Source: Dehalococcoidia bacterium (GTDB lineage: Bacteria > Chloroflexota > Dehalococcoidia > UBA2979). From it: a stretch of 64,000 bases of DNA. A program made the position numbers and the translations under genes. The stretch covers positions 1,480,142 through 1,544,141 of the forward strand of contig OZ250164.1 of assembly GCA_965237865.1 (NCBI GenBank), in the 5' to 3' direction. The notes under the pieces are model-generated. The model ran no database searches, was not told where the DNA came from, and saw only the letters and a list, made by a program, of their open reading frames with translations. Of the stretch, positions 3,663-47,007 are shown piece by piece. The first letter of the stretch is position 1. Each line of letters opens with the position of its first letter.

Positions 3663-4196
3663 ATGAGCGACCTCAATTGTGACTGGGCGGCCCTTGTTCT
3701 CGTCGGCGCCACTCTGGTGCTGGCACTGGCGACCTTCTGGCTCGCCTGGAAGACACGCGCTATGGCCAACGCGACGGCGCAACTCGTAGCGATAGAGGTC
3801 GACCGGCGTGCCGAGGAAGGGCTCGCGGCACTCAGTATCGTCTCCCGAGAGCCAGCGCCTGGCGCACCCAAGATCGGCGGGCTGACGCCAGTCCGGGTGA
3901 TCGTCCAGAACACGCGGAAGGGAGAGGCGAGCAACATCGTCGTGCGGTATCGCGACGGTGACCGAGGCGGCACGTTCTGGCGAGACCGCCTCGCGGGCCT
4001 CGGTACGTTCTCCCTTCTCGAGGATGAGTTCAGCGAAATCACGCCCGAAGATCTGCGCGCCTCGGCCGATCGCTTCATGGACGTGCGATGGACCGACCAG
4101 CGAGGTCCGCAGTCATCGCCAGTCTACGGCTGGGAGGACGGCCGCACTGGCGCCCCTGATGGCCTACTCGACCTCCCGTCCCCCGAATCACAATAG
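3663..4196 (+). CDS. Hypothetical small membrane protein (177 aa)
   Basis: N-terminal TM helix 'WAALVLVGATLVLALATFWLAW'. Lower-GC patch. No recognisable family. Confidence 0.45.
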   Translation: MSDLNCDWAALVLVGATLVLALATFWLAWKTRAMANATAQLVAIEVDRRAEEGLAALSIVSREPAPGAPKIGGLTPVRVIVQNTRKGEASNIVVRYRDGDRGGTFWRDRLAGLGTFSLLEDEFSEITPEDLRASADRFMDVRWTDQRGPQSSPVYGWEDGRTGAPDGLLDLPSPESQ

Positions 4197-4657
4197 GACC
4201 GCTGAGCATTGGATACCGGAACGCTTGCCGGGTGTTGAGCCGTGCTGAACGAAACCTGCGGCGAGGGAGTCTGCTGGACGCCGAACTGCCACCATGTGGA
4301 GTGACTTCGCGCCCTCCGCGTTGACACTCCGGCACCGCCAGCCGTAGCCTCGATAGCGGTCGCAGCGTGAAGAGAGCGACGAAGAACGGGAGTAGTACGC
4401 CGCCACGCGGGGCCCAGAGAGCCGGGGCAAGGTGGAAGCCCGGCGCCCGACAGCAGCGGCGGAATGGACCCGGGAGTCTCGGCCCGAACGCCCCTCGGGG
4501 CAAGTAGGCGTCGACGGTGTGGGCGCCGTTATCCAGGCCCAGGGCATCGCCGCCACGTCCCGCATCCGGGGCAGCCGGGCGGCCGTGCCTTGAATGAGCG
4601 CGAGCCGCGCGGGCCTCGAGGCCTGCCGGCGCGCGGAACTTGGGTGGCGCCGCGAGG

Positions 4658-4685
4658 ACCATCGCCCCAGGGCGGTGGTTCTTTT
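4658..4685 (+). terminator. Candidate intrinsic terminator or attenuator-like hairpin upstream of the trp leader
   Basis: Stem 'CCAUCGCC' / 'GGCGGUGG' with one G-U pair and a CCAG loop, followed by 'UUCUUUUG'. U-rich tracts are rare at this GC content. Confidence 0.35.
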
Positions 4686-4730
4686 GCGTCCGGAGCGCAC
4701 ACTGTTCGGGGAGAACGAGGAGGCTTGATC

Positions 4731-4850
4731 GTGCACAGCAGCCCTGCGCCGTACTGCCGCCAGTCCGCGCCGCGCCTCGGCGGCGTCTGGTGGTGGCCGC
4801 ACGCCGCACGGACGGAACGCTGCAGCGCACGGACAGGACCACGACGATGA
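4731..4850 (+). CDS. trpL: trp operon leader peptide (39 aa) with three consecutive Trp codons
   Basis: GTG start 9 nt downstream of the SD 'GAGGAGG'. Sequence reads '...RLGGVWWWPHAARTERCSARTGPRR*'. TGG TGG TGG lies at 4788-4796. Its stop TGA overlaps the trpE ATG as ATGA. Confidence 0.6.
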   Translation: MHSSPAPYCRQSAPRLGGVWWWPHAARTERCSARTGPRR

Positions 4851-6337
4851 CCCCACCCACCGCAACCCGCACGACACCGACCCGCGAGGAGCTGCGCCGC
4901 CTCGCCGCCGCCGGCGAGGGCAACCTCGCCGCGATCTACCGCGAGGTGCGCGCCGACCTCGAGACGCCCGTCTCCGCCTACCTCAAGGTCGCGCGCGGCG
5001 AGTACTCGTTCCTGCTCGAGTCCGTCGAGGGCGGCGAGCGCATGGGGCGCTACTCGTTCATCGGCACGGAGCCCTACCGCGTCAGCGCCCTGCATCACGA
5101 GGACGGCGATCCGCTGCTCGTGATCGAGGACGAGATCAGCCAGTTCCGCCCGGTGCCGGCGCCGGGCCTGCCGCGCTTCCACGGCGGCGCCGTCGGCTAC
5201 CTCGGCTACGAGGCGGTCGGGCACTTCGAGCGCGTGCCGCAGCCGGAGACGGACGCGCTGGGCGTGCCCGAGTCGTGGCTGATGTTCACGGATACGCTGC
5301 TCGTCTTCGACCACGTGCTGCACACCATCAAGGTGATCTCGCACGCGCGCCTCGACGGCGACATCGACGCCGCCTACGACGCCGCGGTCGCGAAGATCGA
5401 CCGCCTCACGGAGCGCCTCGCAGCCCCGCTCGCCGCGCTGCCCTACACCCCGCTCGACGGGCCGACGGGGCAGCCCATCGAGTCCAACTGGGCGCACGCG
5501 GACTACCTGGAGGCCGTCAAGACGACCAAGCGCTACATCACCGACGGCGACATCATCCAGGCGGTGATCGCGCAGCGCTTCTCGCGCAGGACCGGCGTAC
5601 ACGCGGTGGAGCTCTACCGCTCGCTGCGCGTGGTCAACCCCTCGCCCTACATGTACCTGCTGCAGTTCGGCGAGATCGCCATCGTTGGCGCCTCCCCCGA
5701 GCTGCTGGTGAAGGTCGAGGACGGCCGCGTCGACGTGCACCCGATCGCGGGCACGCGGCCACGCACCGGATCGCCCGCCGAGGACGAGCGGCTGGCCGAG
5801 GAGCTGCGCAACGATCCGAAGGAGATCGCGGAACACGTGATGCTGCTCGACCTCGGGCGCAACGACGTGGGGCGCGTCTCGAAGATCGGCTCGGTCGAGG
5901 TGACGCAGAGCTTCGACCTCGAGTTCTACTCGCACGTCATGCACCTCGTGAGCCACGTGCAGGGCGAGCTGCGCGAGGGGATGAGCGAGTACGACGCGCT
6001 GCGGTCGGCCTTCCCGGCGGGCACGGTCTCCGGCGCGCCGAAGATCCGCGCGATGGAGATCATCGCGGAGCTGGAGCCGGACCGGCGCGGCCCGTACGCG
6101 GGCGCGGTGGGGTTCTTCGACCTCTCGGGCAACGTCGAGACCTGCATCACGATCCGCACCGCGCTGCTGCGCGACGGCGTCGCCTACGTGCAGGCCGGCG
6201 GCGGCATCGTCTACGACTCCGACCCGCAGCGGGAGTTCGAGGAGACCCAGCACAAGGCGCGGGCGCTGATGGCCGCCATCGACGACGCCGAGGCGCGGGC
6301 CGGCGTCAGCACGCCGTCGGGAAGCCTGGGCTACTGA
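4847..6337 (+). CDS. trpE: Anthranilate synthase component I
   Basis: 496 aa from the internal ATG at 4847. Chorismate-binding domain motifs 'LLESVEGGE', 'GAVGYLGYE' and 'PAGTVSGAPKIRAMEII...GPYAGAVGF' are present. Confidence 0.93.
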   Translation: MTPPTATRTTPTREELRRLAAAGEGNLAAIYREVRADLETPVSAYLKVARGEYSFLLESVEGGERMGRYSFIGTEPYRVSALHHEDGDPLLVIEDEISQFRPVPAPGLPRFHGGAVGYLGYEAVGHFERVPQPETDALGVPESWLMFTDTLLVFDHVLHTIKVISHARLDGDIDAAYDAAVAKIDRLTERLAAPLAALPYTPLDGPTGQPIESNWAHADYLEAVKTTKRYITDGDIIQAVIAQRFSRRTGVHAVELYRSLRVVNPSPYMYLLQFGEIAIVGASPELLVKVEDGRVDVHPIAGTRPRTGSPAEDERLAEELRNDPKEIAEHVMLLDLGRNDVGRVSKIGSVEVTQSFDLEFYSHVMHLVSHVQGELREGMSEYDALRSAFPAGTVSGAPKIRAMEIIAELEPDRRGPYAGAVGFFDLSGNVETCITIRTALLRDGVAYVQAGGGIVYDSDPQREFEETQHKARALMAAIDDAEARAGVSTPSGSLGY

Positions 6338-7263
6338 TGGACGCCAAACCGCTCGTCGCCGCCGCCGCGCTGCGCCGCAGCGACGGACGCGTGCTGCTCG
6401 TGCAACACGCCCGGCAGGAGCGCAGCGGCGCCGGCAGCCGCTGGTCCCTGCCCTCGGAGCCCGTCGCCGACGACGAGACCGCGGAGCAGGCGCTGGCGCG
6501 GCTGCTGAACGACCGCCTGCACCTCACCCCGGACCGCGCCGAGTTCAACGACTCGATCGCGCTGCCGGACGCGATCGCCAACGTCTTCCTCTGCAGCTCG
6601 TGGCGAGGCGACCCGCAGTACGCGCCCGCCGACTTCCTCGATGCAGCGTGGGCGCCTCCCGGCGGGGCAGCCGGCATCAATGTCGTCGAGGGCGTGCGCG
6701 AATGGCTGCAGGGCCTGCCCGCGGACGGCGGCGCGCTCCCCAAGAGCGCAAGCCCCGACGAGCTGACCGCGGAGCTGATCACTGCGCGCGACGCGCTGCG
6801 CGCCGCCTACCTCGCCCTCGATGAGCCGTGGCGCGACGTCAGCCTCGACGGCGACTGGGCGCCGGTCGAGCTGCTCGCGCACTGCGCCACGGTCGAGGCC
6901 TACTACGCCTCCGAGGCGCGCGAGCTGCTGGAGACACCGGGCCACACCTGGCGCCCCTTCAACCCGGCGCAGGGCGCCGCCGAGCGCGCGGGCCGCGCGC
7001 GCCCGTCCAGCGATCGCGCCGAGCTCGAACGCCTCGATGTGCTGCGCACGGAGACGCTCGCCTGGGTCGAGACGCTCGGACGGGACGAGCTCGACGCCTA
7101 CGGCGACCACGCCGATCGCGGCGCGGTGCGTGTCGGCGATCGGATCGCGCGAATCGCGGCCCACGACAAGGCTCACACGCAGCAACTCGCGAAGATGCTC
7201 GCCGCCTCGCAGGCGGACCCCGCTGACGACGAGGAGGCCGACGATGCTTCTGCTGATCGATAA
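6338..7263 (+). CDS. NUDIX hydrolase N-terminal domain fused to a DinB/YfiT-like C-terminal domain (308 aa)
   Basis: Start ATG overlaps the trpE stop. N-terminal '...LVQHARQE..WSLPSEPV..ETAEQALARLL' is Nudix-like. C-terminal 'ELLAHCATVEAYY...IAAHDKAHTQQL' is DinB-like. The last six codons are encoded by the first copy of the 71-bp repeat. Confidence 0.6.
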
Positions 7264-7548
7264 CGTCCGCGCGCGGTCTGTGGCTTACATCCGTGGCCTG
7301 TCTGGAGCGTTCCCATGCTTCTCTTGATCGATAACGTCCGCAGGAGGTCTGTGGCTTACATCCGTGGCCTGTCTGGAGCGTTCCCATGCTTCTCTTGATC
7401 GATAACGTCCGCAGGAGGTCTGTGGCTTGCATCCGTGGCCTGTTTGGAGCGTACCCATGCTTCTCTTGATCGATAACGTCCGCGGGCGGTCTGTGGCCTA
7501 CATCCGTGGCCTGTTTGGAGCGTTCCCATGCTTCTACTGATCGATAAC
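7244..7548. repeat. Tandem direct repeat of a 71-bp unit x4, plus a fifth partial copy that is the trpG start
   Basis: The 'ATGCTTCT(C/G/A)(T/C)TGATCGATAAC' motif begins at 7244, 7315, 7386, 7457 and 7528, exactly 71 bp apart. Units are more than 90% identical. Each unit carries an internal 'AGGAGG' and starts a 27-codon ORF (MLLLIDNVRRRSVAYIRGLSGAFPCFS) whose TGA stop overlaps the next unit's ATG. Confidence 0.9.
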
Positions 7549-8121
7549 TACGATTCGTTCACCTACAACCTCTACCAGTACCTCTCCGAGCTGGGCGCGA
7601 CCGTCGAGGTCGTGCGCAACGACGAGGCCAGCGTCGAGGACTGCCTCGCGATGGGGCCGGAGCGGATCGTCGTCTCGCCGGGGCCGTGCACGCCGGCGGA
7701 GGCAGGCATCTCGATCGATCTGATCCGGGCGGCGGCCGGGCAGGTGCCGCTGCTCGGCGTCTGCCTCGGACACCAGAGCATCGGCGAGGCGTTCGGCGCG
7801 CGGGTCGGTCACGCGGGCGAGATCATGCACGGCAAGATCTCGACGGTGACGCACGACGGGCGAGGCGTCTTCGAGTCGCTGCCGCAGCCGTTCGAGGCGA
7901 TTCGCTATCATTCACTGGCGATCGAGCCGGACTCGCTGCCGGACGAGCTCGAGGTCTCGGCGCGCGCGGAGAGCGGGGTGATCATGGGTGTCCGCCACCG
8001 CACGCTGCCGATCGAGGGCGTCCAGTTCCACCCCGAGTCGATCATGACGGCCACGGGCCACGATCTGCTGCGCAACTTCCTCGCGATGGAGTCGCCGCGC
8101 ACAGCGGCGGCCCCGGCGTGA
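7528..8121 (+). CDS. trpG: Anthranilate synthase component II / glutamine amidotransferase
   Basis: 197 aa. Class-I GATase with 'GVCLGHQSIGEAFG' (catalytic Cys) and 'VQFHPES' (His). Confidence 0.93.
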   Translation: MLLLIDNYDSFTYNLYQYLSELGATVEVVRNDEASVEDCLAMGPERIVVSPGPCTPAEAGISIDLIRAAAGQVPLLGVCLGHQSIGEAFGARVGHAGEIMHGKISTVTHDGRGVFESLPQPFEAIRYHSLAIEPDSLPDELEVSARAESGVIMGVRHRTLPIEGVQFHPESIMTATGHDLLRNFLAMESPRTAAAPA

Positions 8122-8126
8122 GTCGG

Positions 8127-8179
8127 GAGGCGGCCTGAGTTGGGCACGTTCAACGTCACCATCGAAGTTGCGGCCGGAC
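8127..8179. repeat. Left copy of a ~53-bp direct repeat; contains the SD and TTG start of the retropepsin-like gene
   Basis: 'GAGGCGGCCTGAGTTGGGCACGTTCAACGTCACCATCGAAGTTGCGGCCGGAC'. A second copy lies at 8524-8581 with about 8 mismatches. Confidence 0.8.
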
Positions 8180-8535
8180 ACGAGGGACCATTCGAAACCC
8201 TCGACGCCGTCGTGGATACGGGCGCGACGTTCACCCGGGTGCCGTCCTCGATCTTGCAGCGCCTGGGTGTCGAACCCGCGCAGCGGCGCGAGTTCATCAC
8301 GCCCGACGGCAACCGCGTGGAACGCGGCGTGGGTTCAGTCGTGGTCCGGATCGACGAGGAAGCGTCCACTACGCTCGCCGTGTTTGGCGAGAGCGATGGC
8401 AACACGGTGCTCGGATCAGTGACGCTGGCGACGCTTGGCCTCGGGGTCGATCCGGCACGACAGCGGCTGGTTCAGGCACCCGCCTACCTCCCGAGCATCG
8501 TGCTGGCCCCCGACACGGAGCGAGAGGCGGTCTGA
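8140..8535 (+). CDS. Retropepsin-like (clan AA) aspartic protease, 131 aa, inserted between trpG and trpD
   Basis: TTG start preceded by 'GGGAGGCGG'. Catalytic motif 'VVDTGATFTRVP'. The size fits a single-lobe retropepsin or a DUF4124-type protease. Confidence 0.6.
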   Translation: MGTFNVTIEVAAGHEGPFETLDAVVDTGATFTRVPSSILQRLGVEPAQRREFITPDGNRVERGVGSVVVRIDEEASTTLAVFGESDGNTVLGSVTLATLGLGVDPARQRLVQAPAYLPSIVLAPDTEREAV

Positions 8536-8587
8536 GTTGGGCACGTTCAACATCGCCATCGAAGTAGCGGTCAGGCCAGACGCATGA
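8524..8587 (+). repeat. Right copy of the 53-bp direct repeat, encoding a 16-codon uORF coupled to trpD
   Basis: It re-creates the SD 'GAGAGGCGG' and a TTG start at 8540. The uORF reads 'MGTFNIAIEVAVRPDA*'. Its TGA stop at 8585-8587 overlaps the trpD ATG at 8584. Confidence 0.7.
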
Positions 8588-9603
8588 TCCGCGAAGCGAT
8601 CACGGCGATTGCGGGGGAGGGCCGCGACCTCAGCGAGGATGAGGCCGCCGCCGTGATGGGCGAGATCATGGAGGCGGAGGCGACGCCCGCGCAGTTCGGC
8701 GCCTTCGTCGTCGCGCTGCAGCACAAGGGCGAGACCGTCGACGAGGTCGTCGGGATGGCGCGCGTGATGCGAGAGCACTCGCTCAAGGCGCACGTCAGCG
8801 CGCGCCCGCTGCTCGACACCTGCGGCACCGGCGGCTCCGGGCTCAGCACGTTCAACGTCTCGACGGCGGCCGCGATCGTCGCCGCCTCCGCCGGGGCGAA
8901 GGTCGCCAAGCACGGCAACCGCGCGATGACCTCGCAGTCCGGCTCGGCCGACCTGCTCGAGGCGCTCGGGGCGGAGATCACACTTGCGCCGGAGCAGGTG
9001 GCGAGCTGCATCGAGCGCACCGGGCTGGGCTTCCTCTTCGCGCAGGCGTTCCACCCGGCGATGAAGTTCGCGGCGCCGTTGCGGCGCGAGATCGGCGTGC
9101 GCACGGTCTTCAACATCCTCGGCCCGCTCACCAACCCCGCCTCGGCCAACAGCCACGTGCTCGGCACGCCCAGCGTCGCCATCGCGGAGCTGCTCGCCGG
9201 GGCGCTGGCGCGCCTCGGCGTACGGCACGCCCTCGTGGTCTCGAGCGACGAGGGCCTCGACGAGATCTCGGTCTCGGCGCCGACGACGCTGTTCGAGGTC
9301 CGCGGCGCGGAGGTCACGCAACGCCGCGTCACGCCGAAGGACCTCGGCGTGATGGAGCGCACGCTCGACGAGGTGCGCGGCGGGAGCGCCGAGGAGAACG
9401 CAGCGGCGCTGCGCGCCGTGCTGCGCGGCGACGGCTCGGGGGCGCTGCGCGACTTCATCGCGATCAACGCCGGCGCGGGCCTCTACGTGTGCGGCCTCGC
9501 CGCCTCCATCCAGCAGGGCGCCGAACAGGCGCTGACGGCTATCGACGAGGGCGAGGCGGCCGCACGCCTCGGCGCCTTCGTCGAAGCCACACGGCGCAGT
9601 TGA
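8584..9603 (+). CDS. trpD: Anthranilate phosphoribosyltransferase
   Basis: 339 aa. Motifs 'DTCGTGGSG' and 'KHGNRAMTSQSGSADLLEALG'. Confidence 0.93.
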   Translation: MIREAITAIAGEGRDLSEDEAAAVMGEIMEAEATPAQFGAFVVALQHKGETVDEVVGMARVMREHSLKAHVSARPLLDTCGTGGSGLSTFNVSTAAAIVAASAGAKVAKHGNRAMTSQSGSADLLEALGAEITLAPEQVASCIERTGLGFLFAQAFHPAMKFAAPLRREIGVRTVFNILGPLTNPASANSHVLGTPSVAIAELLAGALARLGVRHALVVSSDEGLDEISVSAPTTLFEVRGAEVTQRRVTPKDLGVMERTLDEVRGGSAEENAAALRAVLRGDGSGALRDFIAINAGAGLYVCGLAASIQQGAEQALTAIDEGEAAARLGAFVEATRRS

Positions 9604-9607
9604 CGCG

Positions 9608-10507
9608 ATGACGGCGGACGCCTCGGCAGGCGCGGCAACGGATGCCGCTGGCCCGCGCGAGACGGGCACCGTGCTGGATCGCATCGTCGCCGACCGGCGA
9701 CTGCGGCTGGCCGAGGACCAGCGCGCGGCGCCTCCCGACGTGATCGAAGGCCTCGCCGCCTCGCGCCCGACGCCGATCGACTTCGCCGCTCGCCTCGTCG
9801 AGGGCCGAGCGGCCGCACCCGAAGGCGCGCGGCTGCGGTTGATCGCCGAGATCAAGCGCGCCTCGCCCTCCCGCGGCGTGATCGACGCCGGGCTCGACGC
9901 CGCCTCGCAGGCCCGCGCGTACGCCGCCGCGGGCGCCTCCGCCGTCTCCGTGCTGACCGAGCCGACGTTCTTCCAGGGCAGCATCGAGGACCTCGCGGCG
10001 GCCGCGGAGGCGTTCGGCAGCGACGCGGACCGGCCGGCGCTGCTGCGCAAGGACTTCGTGTTCGACGCCTACCAGGTCATCGAGGCGCGCGCGCACGGCG
10101 CGGACGCGCTGCTGCTGATCGCGATGATGCTGCCGCCCCGCACGCTCGCCTCGCTGCTCGCGCTCACGCACGCGCAGGGCATGGAGGCGCTGGTCGAGGT
10201 CCACGACGCCGAGGAGCTCGCGGCCGCCCTCGACGCCGGAGCGCGCGTGATCGGCGTCAACAACCGCGATCTGCGGACCTTCGACGAGGACCTCGCGACC
10301 TTCGAGCGGCTCGCGCCGCTCGCGCCGGACGGCGTCGCGCTCGTCGCCGAGTCGGCGATCCACACCGCCGGGGACGCGGCGCGGATGGCCGACGCCGGGG
10401 CGCACGCGCTGCTCGTCGGCGAGGCGCTCGTGCGCTCGGGCGACATCGCCTCGAAGGCGCGGGAATTGATGCTCGCGCCAGTGCGTCGCGGGGTGGCCGG
10501 CTCGTGA
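9608..10507 (+). CDS. trpC: Indole-3-glycerol phosphate synthase
   Basis: 299 aa. 'IAEIKRASPSRG' and 'LLRKDFVFDAYQVIEARAHGADALLLI' are IGPS signatures. Confidence 0.9.
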   Translation: MTADASAGAATDAAGPRETGTVLDRIVADRRLRLAEDQRAAPPDVIEGLAASRPTPIDFAARLVEGRAAAPEGARLRLIAEIKRASPSRGVIDAGLDAASQARAYAAAGASAVSVLTEPTFFQGSIEDLAAAAEAFGSDADRPALLRKDFVFDAYQVIEARAHGADALLLIAMMLPPRTLASLLALTHAQGMEALVEVHDAEELAAALDAGARVIGVNNRDLRTFDEDLATFERLAPLAPDGVALVAESAIHTAGDAARMADAGAHALLVGEALVRSGDIASKARELMLAPVRRGVAGS

Positions 10508-11250
10508 CGCTCGTCAAGATCTGCGGCAACCGCACGCCTGCCGACGTGCTCTCCGCGGCCGAGGCCGGCGCCGATTTCGTGGGGATATGCTTCGCGGAAT
10601 CGAGTCGCCAGGTTGGCGTCGCCGAGGCACAGGCGATGGTCCGCGCCCTCGGCGAGCCGCTTGCCGCGCACGAGATCGCGCTGCCGCCCCCCGCCTGGGG
10701 CCACGCGCGCGAGCACGAGCGCGAGTGGTTCCGCCACGGCGCGGAGGTGATCGAGGCCTACCTCGAGGCGAAGCGGCCGCTCACCGTCGGCCTCTTCGCC
10801 GACCAGCCGATCGAGGAGGTCAACGAGATCGCGCTGGAGACAGAGCTGGACCTGGTCCAGCTCTCCGGCGACGAGACCTGGGAGGACTGCCTGCTCGTCG
10901 CGCGGCAGGTGATCCAGGTCGTGCACGTCTCCCCGCTCGACTCGCCCTCGGACCCGCTCAGGTTCGTCGAGCCGGGCTTTGCGATCGCGCTGATGCTCGA
11001 CTCCGCGCACGGGCCGTACCGCGGCGGATCGGGGCGCGCGTTCGACTGGGAGGTGGCCCGTATCGTCTCCGCCGAGCTGCCGATGATGCTCGCCGGCGGC
11101 CTCACCCCGGAGAACGTCGGCGAGGCGATCGCCCGCGTCGCCCCGTGGGCCGTCGATGTCTCGAGCGGCACGGAGACTGACGGGCGCAAGGACCCCGCCC
11201 GCGTGCGCGACTTCATAGACGCAGTGCGCCGCCAGGACGCCGCTGCCTGA
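10504..11250 (+). CDS. trpF: Phosphoribosylanthranilate isomerase
   Basis: 248 aa. GTG start overlaps the trpC stop. 'VKICGNRTPADV' and 'MLAGGLTPENV' are PRAI motifs. It is about 35 aa longer than typical TrpF. Confidence 0.85.
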   Translation: MTLVKICGNRTPADVLSAAEAGADFVGICFAESSRQVGVAEAQAMVRALGEPLAAHEIALPPPAWGHAREHEREWFRHGAEVIEAYLEAKRPLTVGLFADQPIEEVNEIALETELDLVQLSGDETWEDCLLVARQVIQVVHVSPLDSPSDPLRFVEPGFAIALMLDSAHGPYRGGSGRAFDWEVARIVSAELPMMLAGGLTPENVGEAIARVAPWAVDVSSGTETDGRKDPARVRDFIDAVRRQDAAA

Positions 11251-11355
11251 CGCCAGGGTCCGTCGGGCGACGGCGCTCGGCGGACTGTGCCGAGTCCCTC
11301 CAGACGTTGCTGACAGCCTCTCGGCGGGTGGTAGCAGAGGAGCCGCCCCTCACCT

Positions 11356-11437
11356 CGGTATTGTCGTTGTGTCACAACGCTTCCCGACCGAGGGAGTCTG
11401 CCGCCCTGAGGATGGCGACACTGTGTCACAAGGTCGC
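11356..11437. promoter_or_regulatory. Two copies of an inverted-repeat operator-like motif TTGTG-T-CACAA, 64 bp apart, upstream of the STAS gene
   Basis: 'GTTGTGTCACAACG' at ~11359 and 'CACTGTGTCACAAGG' at ~11423. Each has a TGTG-N-CACA dyad. They lie in a 400-bp non-coding gap between trpF and the signalling module. Confidence 0.35.
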
Positions 11438-11657
11438 GGCTGTGCCTGGTGACCCGTCTGTCCGAGCGAGGCGATCCGCGAGTGCTACCGCGCGAGACGA
11501 ACACGAGGGGCGATCGGGCTCCCGGCGGCCTCAGGCGCTCCGAGGCCACACCAGTCAACCCGCACACATGCGCGGGCTGCAGTGGCTCACGTATACTCCG
11601 ACGGGGCTTGTACTGCCCCAGCCATCGATCACGAGGACGGGTTCAGGAGACGAACTT

Positions 11658-11996
11658 ATGGAAATCAACGCGGAGCGCGACGGCTCGACCGTCGTCGCCA
11701 AGCCGATGGGGCGCCTCGACGGCTCCAACGCGAGCGACTTCCAGGAAGCCCTTGAGGGGGCGATCGAGGAGAGCGATCGCGGCCTCGTCCTTGACTTCGA
11801 GGACATCTCCTACATCAGCAGCGCGGGACTCCGCGTCATCCTGCTCACGGCCCGGACCCTCCAGGGCAACGGCGGCTCAATGGCCCTCTGCTCCCTCGAC
11901 GCCCCGATCCGCGAGGTCTTCGCGATCAGTGGCTTCGACACCATCATCCCGATTCACGGTAACCGCGACGAGGCACTGGCTGCCGTCAGCGCGTAG
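11658..11996 (+). CDS. STAS-domain anti-sigma-factor antagonist (SpoIIAA/RsbV-like), 112 aa
   Basis: ATG lies 7 nt after 'AGGAGA'. 'DFEDISYISSAGLRVILL' carries the conserved phosphorylatable Ser. The longer ORF 11307..11996 in the track is rejected. Confidence 0.75.
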   Translation: MEINAERDGSTVVAKPMGRLDGSNASDFQEALEGAIEESDRGLVLDFEDISYISSAGLRVILLTARTLQGNGGSMALCSLDAPIREVFAISGFDTIIPIHGNRDEALAAVSA

Positions 11997-12050
11997 CCAG
12001 GGTCGCCCAGCCCGAACGAGAGACGCGCACCCCCTCCCCGAGACGACGCG

Positions 12051-41627: not shown

Positions 41628-42935
41628 ATGAACGAAGGCTTCCCGGACTTCGATCTCTACGAGGAACTTGAGGTCTCCGCGAACGCCTCGCCCGAGGTCA
41701 TTCAAGCCGCCTACCGACGGCTCGCCCGCAAGTATCACCCGGACAGCAGTTCCGAACCGGACGATGCGCGCATGCTGCGGCTCAACGCCGCTTTCGAGAT
41801 CCTGTCGAGGGCAGAGCATCGGCGCGCGTACGACATGTGGCGGGCCGGAATGCCGCGTGCGGATACGCGCGTGGCCGCACCTCGGGATCTGAACCGCGAT
41901 CGGCACGTAGGGCACCCGGAGCAGCGCAGCGACAAGCCAGCCCTGAGCGACCACCAAGCCGCTCACGATCGAGGATCGGACCGTGGACTCTGCTACTCGC
42001 TGTCCTCGCGGTCGGTATTGTCGGTCGAGCCGTCATCGGACAGCTACAGTCCGACGACAGTTCAACACCACCGACCACAACGCGCGCCACGGTGGTGCCT
42101 CGCACTGCAACGACGACACCCCTGCGCCGATCGACTCCCGCGCCGACCCTCAACCGCTCGAACGCCGTAACCGCAACACCAACCCGCGCACAAGGCGCGG
42201 CTCCGTCAATACCCACACCAAGGCCGACGCCTGCGGCGGCGAGGGTCGCCACACCCACACAAGCGCCAACGCCTGTAGCTACGAGGGCGAACACGTCCGC
42301 TCCGGTGCCTACGCCTGCGGCGTCGGGGGCTGACACCCCCACGCCTACGCCCACGCCTGCGGTGTCGATGACCGAGACGCTCACACCCACGCCGACGCCC
42401 ACGGCGGCGAGGGCCGAAACGCCCACTCCGACGCCAACGTCCGCAGCGGCGGAGCCGGCCGCGCCGACTCCCACGCGAACGGCTGCGGCTCCAGAAGCGT
42501 TCGGCGACGGCGTCTACCTCGTACCTTCCGAGGTCGCGCCGGGGACGTACACAGCGACCGATACTGGTCCCTTGTGCGACGTTTACCGAGACAACATCTA
42601 TCGCTTGGCGTCGGGACCGGGACGGGTCACCTTCGAAGTACAAGCGGAGTGGGCCACCATCAGCATCAGCGGCTGCGGGACCTTCGAATCACACACCCTC
42701 AGCCGCCTCGTCGCGTTCGGCGACGGCGTCTACCTGGTCCCCTCCGAGCTCGCACCGGGGACGTACACAGCGACCGATACTGGTCCCTTGTGCGACGTCT
42801 ACCGAGACAACATCTATCGCTTGGCGTCGGGACCGGGACGGGTCACCTTCGAAGTACAAGCGGAGTGGGCCACCATCAGCATCAGCGGCTGCGGGACCTT
42901 CGAATCACACACCCCCAGCCGTCTCATCGCGTTCG
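41628..42935 (+). pseudogene. J-domain membrane protein with PT-rich linker and tandem ~73-aa Cys-containing repeats; 5' portion, likely frameshifted and interrupted by IS21
   Basis: J domain 'DLYEELEVSANASPEVIQAAYRRLARKYHPD'. There is a frame change somewhere in 41870-41990. Then a TM helix 'WTLLLAVLAVGIVG', a Pro/Thr linker, and repeats 'FGDGVYLVPSE.APGTYTATDTGPLCDVYRDNIYRLASGPGRVTFEVQAEWATISISGCGTFESHT'. Confidence 0.55.
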
Positions 42936-43032
42936 TGTCGATCGCCAGGGTCTTCTTACCAGTCGTCGCCAGAGTCATTTGACCACCCTGGGCAGCCGGT
43001 ACGCGGCTTGATATCAGTGCCTGTCTGTGTCG

Positions 43033-43806: not shown

Positions 43807-45383
43807 CGTGACGCTCCTGTCGTGGTCTGCGTGGCGGTCAGTGCGAAGACGGCGCCGGGGCGGGCGAAGCGGCCCGGCGGCGGGGGCCCGGGCGGCTGCT
43901 GCGGGGTGGTCTCCTGCTCGAGGGCCTCGACGAGGATGCGCTCGAGCCGGCGCACGTCGATCAGCTCGACCTCGAGCGCCCGCAGGCAGGCGGCATCGAG
44001 GCGGGCGGGGGAGTAGCGCTCCGCGAGCCGCAGCAGCTTGTGGCCCTGCCGGAGCTTCGCCCAGGGCAGGGGTCCCTCGAAGAGCCGCTCGGCGTAGCTG
44101 CCCACGGCCTCGCCCAGCTCGGCCGCGCGCCGCTGGATCTGCTCGGGCGCACGCCGCGTGTAGGGGCTGAGCTCTGCCGGGTAGTCGTTCGGGTCGGTGG
44201 CCCGGCCGCCGCGCTGCTGGCGCGGATGGACCTTGAGCAGCGCGCCGCGGTGGTAGATGCGCACCAGCTTCGCGCCGAGTTGCACCTCCACCTTCTGCCC
44301 CGGCGGGCAGAGCTCCGACGGCACCGAATAGAGTGCGTACTGGCAGGCGACGTGGTGGTCTGCGTGGACCGTCGCCGTACGCCAGTCGGGCAGCTCGTAC
44401 GGTTCCCCGTCCCACGGGGCGAGCAGCGGGCGCTCCTCCTCCTGGAAGACCTCGAGCGGGCGCCTGCGGGTCGTGCCGTGGATGCGCTGCCCCGCCACCT
44501 CCAGGCACCAGCGCCGGGCGACGGAGCGCATCTCGGCGAGGTCCCGGAACTGGGCACCCTTGAAGAAGCGCTCGCGCACGTACGGGACGCTGCGCTCGAC
44601 GCGCGGCTTGTCGCGGGGCCGGCGCACGCGTGCGGGGTCGCTGATGAAGCCGCGGTGGCGGGCGTACTCCAGGAAGCCCCGCGTGAAGCGCGGGTGCAGC
44701 GCGTCGGCCCCGGCCACGGCGGCCGGGAAGTTATCGATGACGAGGTAGCGGGGCACGCCCCCGAAACAGGCCCAGGCCGCCTCCAGGCCCTCGATCACCG
44801 CCCCCAGCTGCTGGCTGGTGGTGGGCCAGACGAAGCAGTGCCGCGAGTAGCGCCAGACCACGATCAGCGCCCACACCGTGCGCCGGCGGCCGCTCTCGGG
44901 ATCCGTGACCAGGCCGAGCCGGCCGAAGTCCATCTCGGCGACCTCGCCCGGCGGCCCGTCCTCCATGCGCACGGTCACAGGCTGCCGCTGGCGCCAGCCG
45001 CGGCGCCGGATGAAGCGCCGCAGCGAGCTGTACGAGACCTCGCAGCCGCGCTCGGCCAGCAGCTCCTGGACCCGCGTCACCTGCAGGCGCTCGGCCGTCA
45101 GCCAGCCCTCGATCTGCTCCGCCCACGGCGCCAGCAGCTGCTCGCTCGGCGCCTCCGCCTGCCGCGGCCCGGTCCGGCTCAGCGTCGCCAGGCGGGCGAG
45201 CTGCTCCTCACTCGGCTCGGGACCGCCGGGCTCAAGCCCGGCCGCCTCCGCCGCCTCGATGTAGCGCCGCACCGTCGGCCGCGACACTCCCGTGCCGCCA
45301 GCGATCCGGCGCTGGCTGAGTCCCGCCTGCCAGCGGCGGATGACTTCCCTGATCTCCACGCAATGCACCTCCCGGTAGGCCAT
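43803..45383 (-). CDS. istA: IS21 transposase IstA
   Basis: 526 aa. N-terminal HTH 'IAGGTGVSRPTVRRY'. DDE/integrase core '..YLVIDNFPAAV..'. Confidence 0.88.
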   Translation of the reverse strand: MAYREVHCVEIREVIRRWQAGLSQRRIAGGTGVSRPTVRRYIEAAEAAGLEPGGPEPSEEQLARLATLSRTGPRQAEAPSEQLLAPWAEQIEGWLTAERLQVTRVQELLAERGCEVSYSSLRRFIRRRGWRQRQPVTVRMEDGPPGEVAEMDFGRLGLVTDPESGRRRTVWALIVVWRYSRHCFVWPTTSQQLGAVIEGLEAAWACFGGVPRYLVIDNFPAAVAGADALHPRFTRGFLEYARHRGFISDPARVRRPRDKPRVERSVPYVRERFFKGAQFRDLAEMRSVARRWCLEVAGQRIHGTTRRRPLEVFQEEERPLLAPWDGEPYELPDWRTATVHADHHVACQYALYSVPSELCPPGQKVEVQLGAKLVRIYHRGALLKVHPRQQRGGRATDPNDYPAELSPYTRRAPEQIQRRAAELGEAVGSYAERLFEGPLPWAKLRQGHKLLRLAERYSPARLDAACLRALEVELIDVRRLERILVEALEQETTPQQPPGPPPPGRFARPGAVFALTATQTTTGASR

Positions 45384-45518
45384 CGCTGCTCCCTTCCCTG
45401 GGGATGCAGACGATGCTGGCCGTACCGGCGGCCCGGGTGGTCAATAGACCCTGGCGAAGTGGTCAAAAGACCCTGGCGATCTCGCCGTTTGGTGGTAAAT
45501 AGATCCTGGCGATTCACA

Positions 45519-45939
45519 GTTCGGCGATGGCGTCTACCTGGTCTCCTCCGAGCTCGCACCGGGGACGTACACCGCGACCGATACTGGTCCCTTGTGCGAC
45601 GTCTACCGAGACAACATCTATCGCTTGGCGTCGGGACCGGGACGGGTCACCTTCGAAGTACAAGCGGAGTGGGCCACCATCAGCATCAGCGGCTGCGGGA
45701 CCTTCGAATCACACACCCCCAGCCGTCTCATCGCGTTCGGCGATGGCGTCTACCTGGTCCCCTCCGAGCTCGCACCGGGGACGTACACCGCGACCGGTAC
45801 TGGTCCCTTGTGCGACGTCTACCGAGACAACATCTATCGCTTGGCGTCGGGACCGGGACGGGTCACCTTCGAGGTACAGGCCGAGTGGTCCAGCATCCGG
45901 GTCCGCGATTGCGGAACATTCGAACTCGGCGCTCGATAG
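45519..45939 (+). pseudogene. 3' portion of the tandem-repeat protein gene (repeats 3-4), downstream of the IS21 insertion
   Basis: It resumes exactly at 'GDGVYLV..' and is more than 95% nt-identical to 42496-42930. It ends '..CGTFELGAR*'. Confidence 0.6.
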
Positions 45940-45970
45940 TTGCGGTCTACGTCGCGCGCGGTCCCGGCTA

Positions 45971-47007
45971 GCTGTAGTTCCCACGTAGGTTGTTGCAGGT
46001 GAGGGGGTCCGCCTGCTGCTGTGTGTGTGAAACGAACGCACCAGTAGCAGGAGAGGAGCCGCTCGTGGCACATCCTAACGCGCGTCTGACTCCGGCCACC
46101 CGGCTGGAGCTGGTTCTGGAGGTCGAGGCCGGCTGGTCGCAGGCGGAGGTTGCGCGGCGCTTCCGGGTTTCTCGTGCGACGGTCGCCAAGTGGTGGCGCC
46201 GCTACCGGGAGGAGGGTGCGGCTGGTCTCCGCGACCGCAGCTCCGCTCCGCGTTCCAACCCGCGCCGCACCGCAGCCGCGCTCGAGCAGCGCATCTGCGC
46301 CGTGCGCCGCGGCCAGGGGTTCGGGCCGCACCGCATTGCCTGGGCGCTCGGGATCGCCCGCTCCACCGCCTACGCCGTGCTCAGGCGCTTCGGTCTCAAC
46401 CGCCTCGACCGCCTGCACCGCGTCACCCGCGCGGTGGTCCGCTACGAGCACTCCGCCCCCGGCGACCTGCTGCATATCGACGTGAAGAAGCTGGGCCGCA
46501 TCCCCGAGGGCGGCGGACACCGCGTGCGCGGGCGCTCCGCCGCGACCCCGCGCACGCGCGGCCTCGACTACCTGCACGTCGCCGTGGACGACCACAGCCG
46601 CTACGCCTACGTCGCCGCGCTGCCCGACGAGCGCGGCGCGAGCTGCGCCGCCTTCCTCGAGCAGGCGCTCGCCGCCTTCGGCCGCCGCGGCGTGCGCGTG
46701 CGCGGCGTGCTCACGGACAACGCGAAGGTCTACACCGTCTCCGGCGACTTCCGCCGCGCGGCCGCCGCCGCTGGCGTGGAACTGCGGCACACCCGGCCCT
46801 ACCGCCCGCAGACCAACGGCAAGGCCGAGCGCTTCACCCAGATCCTGCAGAACGAGTGGGCCTACGCCTGCCCCTACCGCTCCAACGCCGAGCGGCTGCA
46901 CCAGCTCCCGCGCTGGCTCTACCGCTACAATGCTCGCCGGCCACACGGCGGTATCGGCGGGGCTGTCCCCGCCTCACGCTTGTAAACAACGTTCGTGGGA
47001 AGAACAC
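45971..47007 (+). mobile_element. IS481-family insertion sequence (~1.04 kb) inserted at a CTAG site, with CTAG duplicated
   Basis: Imperfect inverted repeats 'TGTAGTTCCCACGTAGGTTGTT' and 'AACAACGTTCGTGGGAAGAACAC'. CTAG lies at 45967-45970 and at 47008-47011. Confidence 0.75.
46066..46985 (+). CDS. IS481-family transposase (rve integrase core)
   Basis: 'VAHPNARLTP..RLEL' N-terminal HTH. 'LLHIDVKKLG', 'RPYRPQTNGKAERF' and 'YNARRPHGGIGG' are typical IS481/IS3-type DDE motifs. Confidence 0.85.

Follow-up and report, generated by a model that had tools for sequence, protein, structure and literature searches.

Translational coupling is said to have been shown first for the trpE–trpD pair of E. 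coli. In E. coli reporter studies it is most efficient at spacings of −4 to +3 and drops steeply with overlaps longer than 4 nt (review PMC12548453). Short open reading frames (ORFs) can deliver ribosomes to a downstream gene in this way, and mycobacterial interspersed repetitive units (MIRUs) are a natural example (PMC12548453, PMC3184786). MIRUs (Supply et al. 1997, described in PMC12548453, PMC3184786) are units of 40–100 bp that lie in tandem between operon cistrons, as at senX3-regX3, where one strain carries three 77-bp units and another carries two 77-bp units and one of 53 bp (PMC12548453, PMC3184786). They belong to a dispersed family of about 40–50 copies per genome that is thought to be mobile, and their proposed role is to hand ribosomes onward by coupling with little harm to the downstream gene (PMC12548453, PMC3184786); filled sites are flanked by tetranucleotide direct repeats (PMC3184786). 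Imperfect inverted repeats, at the ends of the unit or inside it, are a further mark of the family.

The locus analyzed here lies in the trp operon of a Dehalococcoidia lineage, within the window (the whole 64-kb stretch of DNA studied), where the gene order is trpE / NUDIX-DinB / trpG / trpD and a tandem array of 71-bp units stands between NUDIX-DinB and trpG. The unit length, the tandem position between two operon genes and the variable copy number are those of MIRUs, and so is the presence of small ORFs that are co-oriented with the flanking genes and overlap them. MIRUs, however, couple at −4 nt, whereas the overlaps here are 13 nt (unit–unit and unit–trpG) and 20 nt (NUDIX-DinB–unit 1); the element is single-locus, its unit includes the opening 21 nt of the gene that follows, inverted repeats are absent, and the host is a Dehalococcoidia lineage. 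MIRUs are the closest analogue, and the array may be called MIRU-like in its working, with small co-oriented ORFs bridging two cistrons, while standing outside the MIRU family. Bicistronic designs and translationally coupled genes are similar in that a short ORF ends within or beside the start of the following gene, and the operon itself has classic coupling overlaps of this kind (TGATG at trpE/NUDIX-DinB and ATGA between a small ORF and trpD); the overlap with trpG, in contrast, is well beyond the efficient range, and the ORF is repeated four times. Ordinary bacterial minisatellites (VNTRs), attributed to slipped-strand mispairing, share with this locus the head-to-tail arrangement, the exact period, copy-number differences between strains, and expansion and contraction from one progenitor. 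Here, unlike in those arrays, the progenitor is not anonymous intergenic DNA but a conserved, functional-looking module (uORF, Shine-Dalgarno motif and duplicated start), and each extra unit brings a complete initiation site and a small ORF. We conclude that the array is probably a locus-specific minisatellite that arose by in-place amplification of an intercistronic module conserved in the trp operon of this Dehalococcoidia lineage.

Organization of the array and its reading frames

Tandem Repeats Finder places an array of period 71 at 7244–7548 (4.3 copies, 93% matches, 0% indels, score 512), by a wide margin the strongest short-period array of the 64-kb window, and so confirms the 71-bp tandem repeat reported in a first-pass annotation of this DNA. 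Alignment of the five registers divides the unit into a 21-bp segment, A, with the sequence of the trpG start (ATGCTTCTNNTGATCGATAAC), and a 50-bp segment, B, which reads GTCCGC....GGTCTGTGGCYTRCATCCGTGGCCTGTYTGGAGCGTWCCC and contains a GGAG 7 nt 5′ of the next ATG. The 21-mer occurs five times in the window at an exact spacing of 71 nt and nowhere else in it, and a 26-mer from the remainder of the unit occurs four times (shuffled sequences are expected to hold 0 of either). On the plus strand, unit 1 (7244–7314; A at 7244–7264, B at 7265–7314) is followed by unit 2 (7315–7385), with GGAG at 7304–7307 5′ of its ATG, by unit 3 (7386–7456), by unit 4 (7457–7527), and by a terminal partial unit consisting of A only (7528–7548). 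This fifth copy of the 21-mer is the genuine trpG start and comprises the first seven trpG codons (MLLLIDN); the trpG Shine-Dalgarno motif, GGAG at 7517–7520, lies inside unit 4. A further Shine-Dalgarno-like motif, GAGGAGG (7231–7237, plus strand), stands 6 nt 5′ of the first ATG of the array (7244), and its counterpart directly serves trpG at the junctions of two relatives with zero units (L002 and L005). Substitutions between units are few, as had been noted: pairs of units differ at 3–8 of 71 positions, and the 9 variable positions overall form a nested pattern. An internal AGGAGG, earlier ascribed to each unit, is carried by units 2 and 3 only, the corresponding motif being GCGCGG in unit 1 and GGGCGG in unit 4. 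A CRISPR-like array was rejected, since the entire unit repeats and unique spacers are absent, and the minus-strand ORFs over the array (47–57 aa), which start at the CATG palindrome of each unit, were set aside as by-products of the repeat.

The upstream neighbor is a NUDIX + DinB_2 fusion gene (ORF at 6337–7263, plus strand; Pfam PF00293 and PF12867), orthologues of which occupy the same position in all related loci. Its ATG overlaps the stop of trpE, which runs to 6337, and its own stop, TAA at 7261–7263, falls within the first A, so that unit 1 encodes its last codons (DASADR-TAA), as had been described. Downstream lies trpG (7528–8121, plus strand), encoding the 197-aa glutamine amidotransferase subunit of anthranilate synthase (Pfam GATase, E=1.2e-60), with an identical protein on other contigs; trpD is at 8584–9603.

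Four 27-codon uORFs, one per unit as had been proposed, begin at 7244, 7315, 7386 and 7457 and extend to 7327, 7398, 7469 and 7540, respectively; their consensus is MLLLIDNVR.RSVA.IRGL.GA.PCF.*, and they occupy successive frames because 71 = 2 mod 3. The termination codons had been thought to overlap the next ATG, which is incorrect: each TGA occupies positions 11–13 of the next unit, and it is this that sets the 13-nt overlap of successive ORFs. Because overlaps longer than 4 nt cut coupling strongly, a chain of four −13 junctions would form a poor and lossy relay. GGAG is found 7 nt 5′ of every internal ATG, that of trpG included, and the predicted opening energies of these sites are similar (11.5–13.5 kcal/mol). 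At loci with one unit, the uORF ATG follows the NUDIX-DinB TGA by 1–2 nt (TGA-N1-2-ATG), a spacing inside the −4 to +3 range (PMC12548453), and the uORF ends 13 nt inside trpG.

Copy-number alleles and the origin of the array

Related loci were gathered by an exact-protein TrpG look-up, by a 24-mer of B, and through contigs with NUDIX-DinB homologues, the proteins of which all come from Chloroflexi MAGs; the related contigs share the order trpE / NUDIX-DinB / trpG. The TrpG look-up returned two metagenome contigs, one with a single unit (L001) and one with zero units, in which the NUDIX-DinB stop overlaps the trpG start (L002); no record matched the NUDIX-DinB protein or the 131-aa protein of the window exactly. 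Among 185,579 species-representative genomes, the 24-mer has one exact match, in OZ252046.1 (a 3.58-Mb Dehalococcoidia MAG), at the same junction and again with one unit. Across the collected loci, zero units are found in L002, L005 (84% NUDIX-DinB protein identity), L010 (64%) and L013–16 (44%). Single units are found in L001 and L003, in L004, L006 and L017–L021 (81–89%), and, among distant relatives, in L007–9 (72%) and in L012 (58%), which has a 75-nt period and a GTG start for trpG. The window is the sole four-unit locus among the lineages sampled. Orthologous junctions thus carry 0, 1 or 4 units, also where TrpG is identical or nearly identical (L002 with 0, L001 and L003 with 1, the window with 4), and the earlier suggestion of a copy-number-variable locus holds. 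A head-to-tail array that varies in copy number from one related genome to another is what is meant by a VNTR or minisatellite, and this locus is one.

In a neighbor-joining tree, the window pairs with L001 (98% nucleotide identity) and L002 with L003 (97%), each pair with 100% bootstrap, and the four together form one clade, also with 100% bootstrap; the states 4|1 and 1|0 are thereby placed as sister states. Unit 4 of the window is identical to the single unit in both L001 and L003. The B segment of L007 matches crown-group B at 33 of 50 positions ungapped, a score reached by 0 of 5000 shuffles; homology of the L012 segment is weaker (p=0.0004 against window unit 4, and from 0.0004 to 0.23 depending on the partner). 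By these sequences the one-unit A-B-A module is old, conserved down to 72% NUDIX-DinB identity and probably present also in L012 at 58%. Because the L001 and L003 unit equals window unit 4 and A-B-A recurs in distant relatives, the array grew from a one-unit uORF module, and the A-B-A form is its immediate ancestor. A bare overlap of NUDIX-DinB stop and trpG start had been put forward in the first-pass annotation as the ancestral state, together with a comparison of junctions in relatives; that comparison speaks against it, as most relatives, including the nearest (L001), carry A-B-A, and the bare overlaps in L002 and L005 are derived deletions. The module was deleted at least twice (L002 and L005), probably a third time (L010), and amplified once among the lineages sampled, which amounts to at least three to four independent state changes among 13 lineages. 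The bare overlap may still have been the very deep ancestral state, given L013, which at 44% is the most distant relative sampled. The L001 contig is a low-coverage (5x) long-read sequence with an extra T at 860–895 (GACTGAAGAC) that truncates NUDIX-DinB 8 codons early; this T is probably an indel error, and single-base indel states of L001 are not to be relied on.

In the module, the first A duplicates the trpG start (21 bp) on its upstream side, B (50 bp) separates the two copies and provides the GGAG of trpG, and the second A is the real trpG start. In the mechanism we favor, slipped mispairing at replication or unequal exchange would act on the two copies of A, which lie 50 bp apart; pairing out of register in one sense would delete A+B and leave a zero-unit allele, and in the other sense would produce a second 71-bp unit. 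The repeats, now longer, would then expand more easily, to four in the present case. The small ORFs most likely do no more than retain ribosomes on the transcript from NUDIX-DinB to trpG, through coupling together with independent initiation at each GGAG-ATG, provided that the uORFs are translated. Most trpG initiation would be expected to be direct, or coupled to the last uORF only. Since the trpG initiation region, including at least 71 nt upstream, is the same in one- and four-unit alleles, copy number should change trpG output little, and its effect on expression is probably small and near-neutral.

Constraint on the module and alternative explanations

Across nine distinct units, the upstream A has undergone at least eight changes (counted as minimal changes), and 8/8 are synonymous for MLLLIDN; by enumeration, a single-base change made at random in these codons would be silent in ~22% of cases. 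The changes include TTA and ATA codons in L007. Such codons are expected to be rare in a genome of ~70% G+C. Over the rest of the uORF (codons 8–23, within B) changes are spread over the codon positions without bias (13/10/11), and what is conserved in B is nucleotide motifs, namely an initial GTCCGC and a block, TTTGGAGCGTTCCC, that precedes the ATG. Taken together, the synonymous-only A and the unbiased B imply that the start region of the uORF is constrained as if translated and the remaining peptide is not. The pattern in A suggests more constraint on the uORF than a spacer or relay role would predict; candidate causes for the seven codons are the efficiency of early elongation, sequence exchange now and then with the genuine trpG start (the A copies of L003 are identical to each other), or a role of the peptide. 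A second regularity concerns the NUDIX-DinB stop. Within the crown group its TGA is kept in all one-unit loci, and in all three loci that have left the one-unit state (the window, L002 and L005) the T of this TGA is lost and the frame runs into A. This is three independent co-occurrences of stop loss with departure from one unit, a correlation that a purely neutral slippage model does not predict. On one reading, NUDIX-DinB ribosomes running through the uORF start would deprive the module of its function and leave it free to shrink or grow.

Both regularities can also be read as signs of an adaptive regulatory device, in which the uORF module is a functional translated leader of trpG and copy number a contingency switch for the level of TrpG against those of TrpE and NUDIX-DinB. 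Such a switch would work either by termination-reinitiation with losses that mount from unit to unit or by a decoy effect of the repeated trpG-start sequence or peptide. Conservation of the module across deep divergence and the repeated changes of state fit such a device, and as coupling falls with overlaps longer than 4 nt in reporter studies, unit number could in principle scale output. Against this, codons 8–23 lack codon-position bias, trpG has its own GGAG with 71 nt of upstream sequence identical in one- and four-unit alleles, and the predicted opening energy of the trpG initiation region follows no trend with unit number, the values for 0-, 1- and 4-unit alleles overlapping completely. 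In addition, the uORFs contain no Trp codons, and zero-unit alleles are evidently viable in four lineages. We therefore regard the regulatory device as unlikely. A more specific form of it seems distinctly improbable, namely that A-B-A is a translated leader that needs the TrpG N-terminus (MLLLIDN) as a ramp or a decoy, with stop loss and the 0/1/4-unit series acting as a heritable switch of TrpG dosage; the ramp could act at initiation or early elongation, and the decoy as nascent peptide or RNA. If it were true, the switch would reset TrpG dosage in a T-box-controlled trp operon of uncultured Dehalococcoidia.

Assemblers tend to collapse near-identical tandem repeats, not to expand them. An assembly artefact, in which a single unit or its strain variants were wrongly concatenated into four, is suggested by the probable origin of the source as a metagenome assembly and by the single unit of most relatives. 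It is nevertheless very unlikely in view of the exact 71-nt register without indels, the nested pattern of the 9 variable positions, and the AGGAGG and GCGCGG unit variants, which are absent from every one-unit relative. The trpG genes of the window and L001 have diverged by 5.1% at silent third positions, and this figure, with the 3–8 differences per 71-bp unit, points to an array that is old and stable, not a fresh event or an artefact. Its age is therefore close to that of the divergence from the nearest relative in the sample. Judged on the assembled sequence, it is confirmed as real, and it is a fairly ordinary variable-number repeat of moderate age.

It is highly improbable, too, that a small mobile element of MIRU or MITE type entered at the start of trpG, duplicating 21 bp of target, and was then amplified. 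A-B-A does resemble an insert between direct repeats, and the features shared with MIRUs (intercistronic position, co-oriented ORFs overlapping the flanks, variable tandem copy number) lend the idea some appeal. B, however, is confined to one locus in the 3.58-Mb genome of the relative and is missing elsewhere in the window, where blastn-short gave no convincing second copy (best other match 17 nt, E=0.035); by these searches and the exact 24-mer in representative genomes it is not a dispersed family, a result that strongly diverged copies could escape. Neither terminal nor internal inverted repeats were found within the unit, the flanking repeat is 21 bp instead of the tetranucleotide of filled MIRU sites, and the module is vertically conserved at one junction. 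The JGI metagenomes likewise gave no match for the repeat, by DNA pattern or by protein. The link to the trpG junction made in the first-pass annotation thus stands, and a common dispersed intergenic repeat is not borne out in the window, the representative genomes or the JGI metagenomes. Derivation of B by decay from trpG or from the 3′ end of NUDIX-DinB was also rejected, as local alignments of B to trpG nt 22–91 and to that 3′ end in 8 lineages scored no better than shuffles (p=0.33–0.96) and likenesses seen by eye are chance.

Finally, small ORFs immediately 5′ of a trp gene bring to mind leader peptides that sense tryptophan, or an attenuator of transcription within the operon, an explanation of negligible probability because no uORF in the window or relatives has a Trp codon, and one opposed also by the lack of a terminator-like site and of RNA structure in the array and by the T-box-like leader with a UGG specifier that already precedes trpE. 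An RNA element was rejected more generally: an Rfam scan of 4000–12000 matched nothing in the array, its only match being the T-box upstream of trpE, the array folds less stably than shuffled sequence (z=+2.3), and inverted repeats are lacking. No promoter-like sites were found in 4000–9000, where the sole terminator-like site (4661–4679) lies far upstream, so that an internal promoter or terminator in or beside the array was rejected as well. Bypass of the 50-nt B between identical AAC codons, in the manner of T4 gene 60, was considered for the matching gap length and rejected, given that the would-be take-off site is not followed by a stop codon, that a hairpin is lacking, and that trpG starts from an ATG and a Shine-Dalgarno motif of its own.

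Significance, operon context and further repeats

As a minisatellite grown from a conserved module, the locus offers a natural series (0, 1 and 4 units) in which short direct repeats around a uORF erase or amplify a translation-initiation module while the essential operon stays intact, and a MIRU-like outcome is reached in this uncultured lineage of Chloroflexota with no dispersed mobile element involved. It is usable as a strain marker for these organisms and is a warning for gene callers, which within 300 nt meet the termination codon of NUDIX-DinB, the start of trpG and as many as four small ORFs that are spurious. The points most worth pursuing are the synonymous-only start region and the stop-loss correlation; should the former be a matter of function, this junction would offer a simple system for studying the influence of early codons and of ORF overlap on the efficiency of coupling.

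Two non-trp genes sit inside the trp operon of this Dehalococcoidia lineage, and the junctions around them are all overlaps or very short. The NUDIX + DinB_2 fusion between trpE and trpG is kept down to 44% identity, and an ORF of ~130 aa resembling retroviral-type aspartyl proteases (8140–8535), between trpG and trpD, is confined to the crown group. Upstream of trpE, a T-box-like leader (4373–4534, plus strand) scores 43 bits (E=3e-8) against an Rfam gathering score of 93; its 3′ antiterminator part is unaligned, and the specifier position reads GAA-UGG-A, that is, a Trp codon. The terminator-like hairpin at 4661–4679, which has a T-run, lies 3′ of this leader.

The operon holds a second duplicated gene start, an 84-nt direct repeat (8111–8194 and 8508–8591; 75% identity, 397 nt apart) that copies the end of trpG, a Shine-Dalgarno motif and the first ~18 codons of the protease-like ORF to a site directly 3′ of that ORF. 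The result is a 16-codon ORF at 8537–8587 (MGTFNIAIEVAVRPDA*), the TGA of which overlaps the trpD ATG (8584) as ATGA. The same duplicated start is present in L001 and L002. In the gene tables of L004, L005, L006 and L017 the protease-like ORF overlaps trpD by 4 nt; L013 has just a 48-codon ORF that starts like the protease-like gene, L010 has start-like sequence after trpG, and L007 and L012 have no protease-like start sequence.

Elsewhere in the window, two tandem pairs of a 216-nt repeat are separated by 2.8 kb (42497–42928 and 45517–45948; 81–96% identity), adjoined by an array of 42-nt period at 42211–42451 (5.7 copies, 69% matches). Long plus-strand ORFs span this region (41837–42982 and 44040–45971), and the 216-nt repeats are probably repeated domains in paralogous proteins. 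Just 5′ of the second pair, at 45437–45512, three copies of the 21-nt motif GTGGTCAAWAGACCCTGGCGA at spacings of 22 and 33 nt could be a cluster of binding sites.
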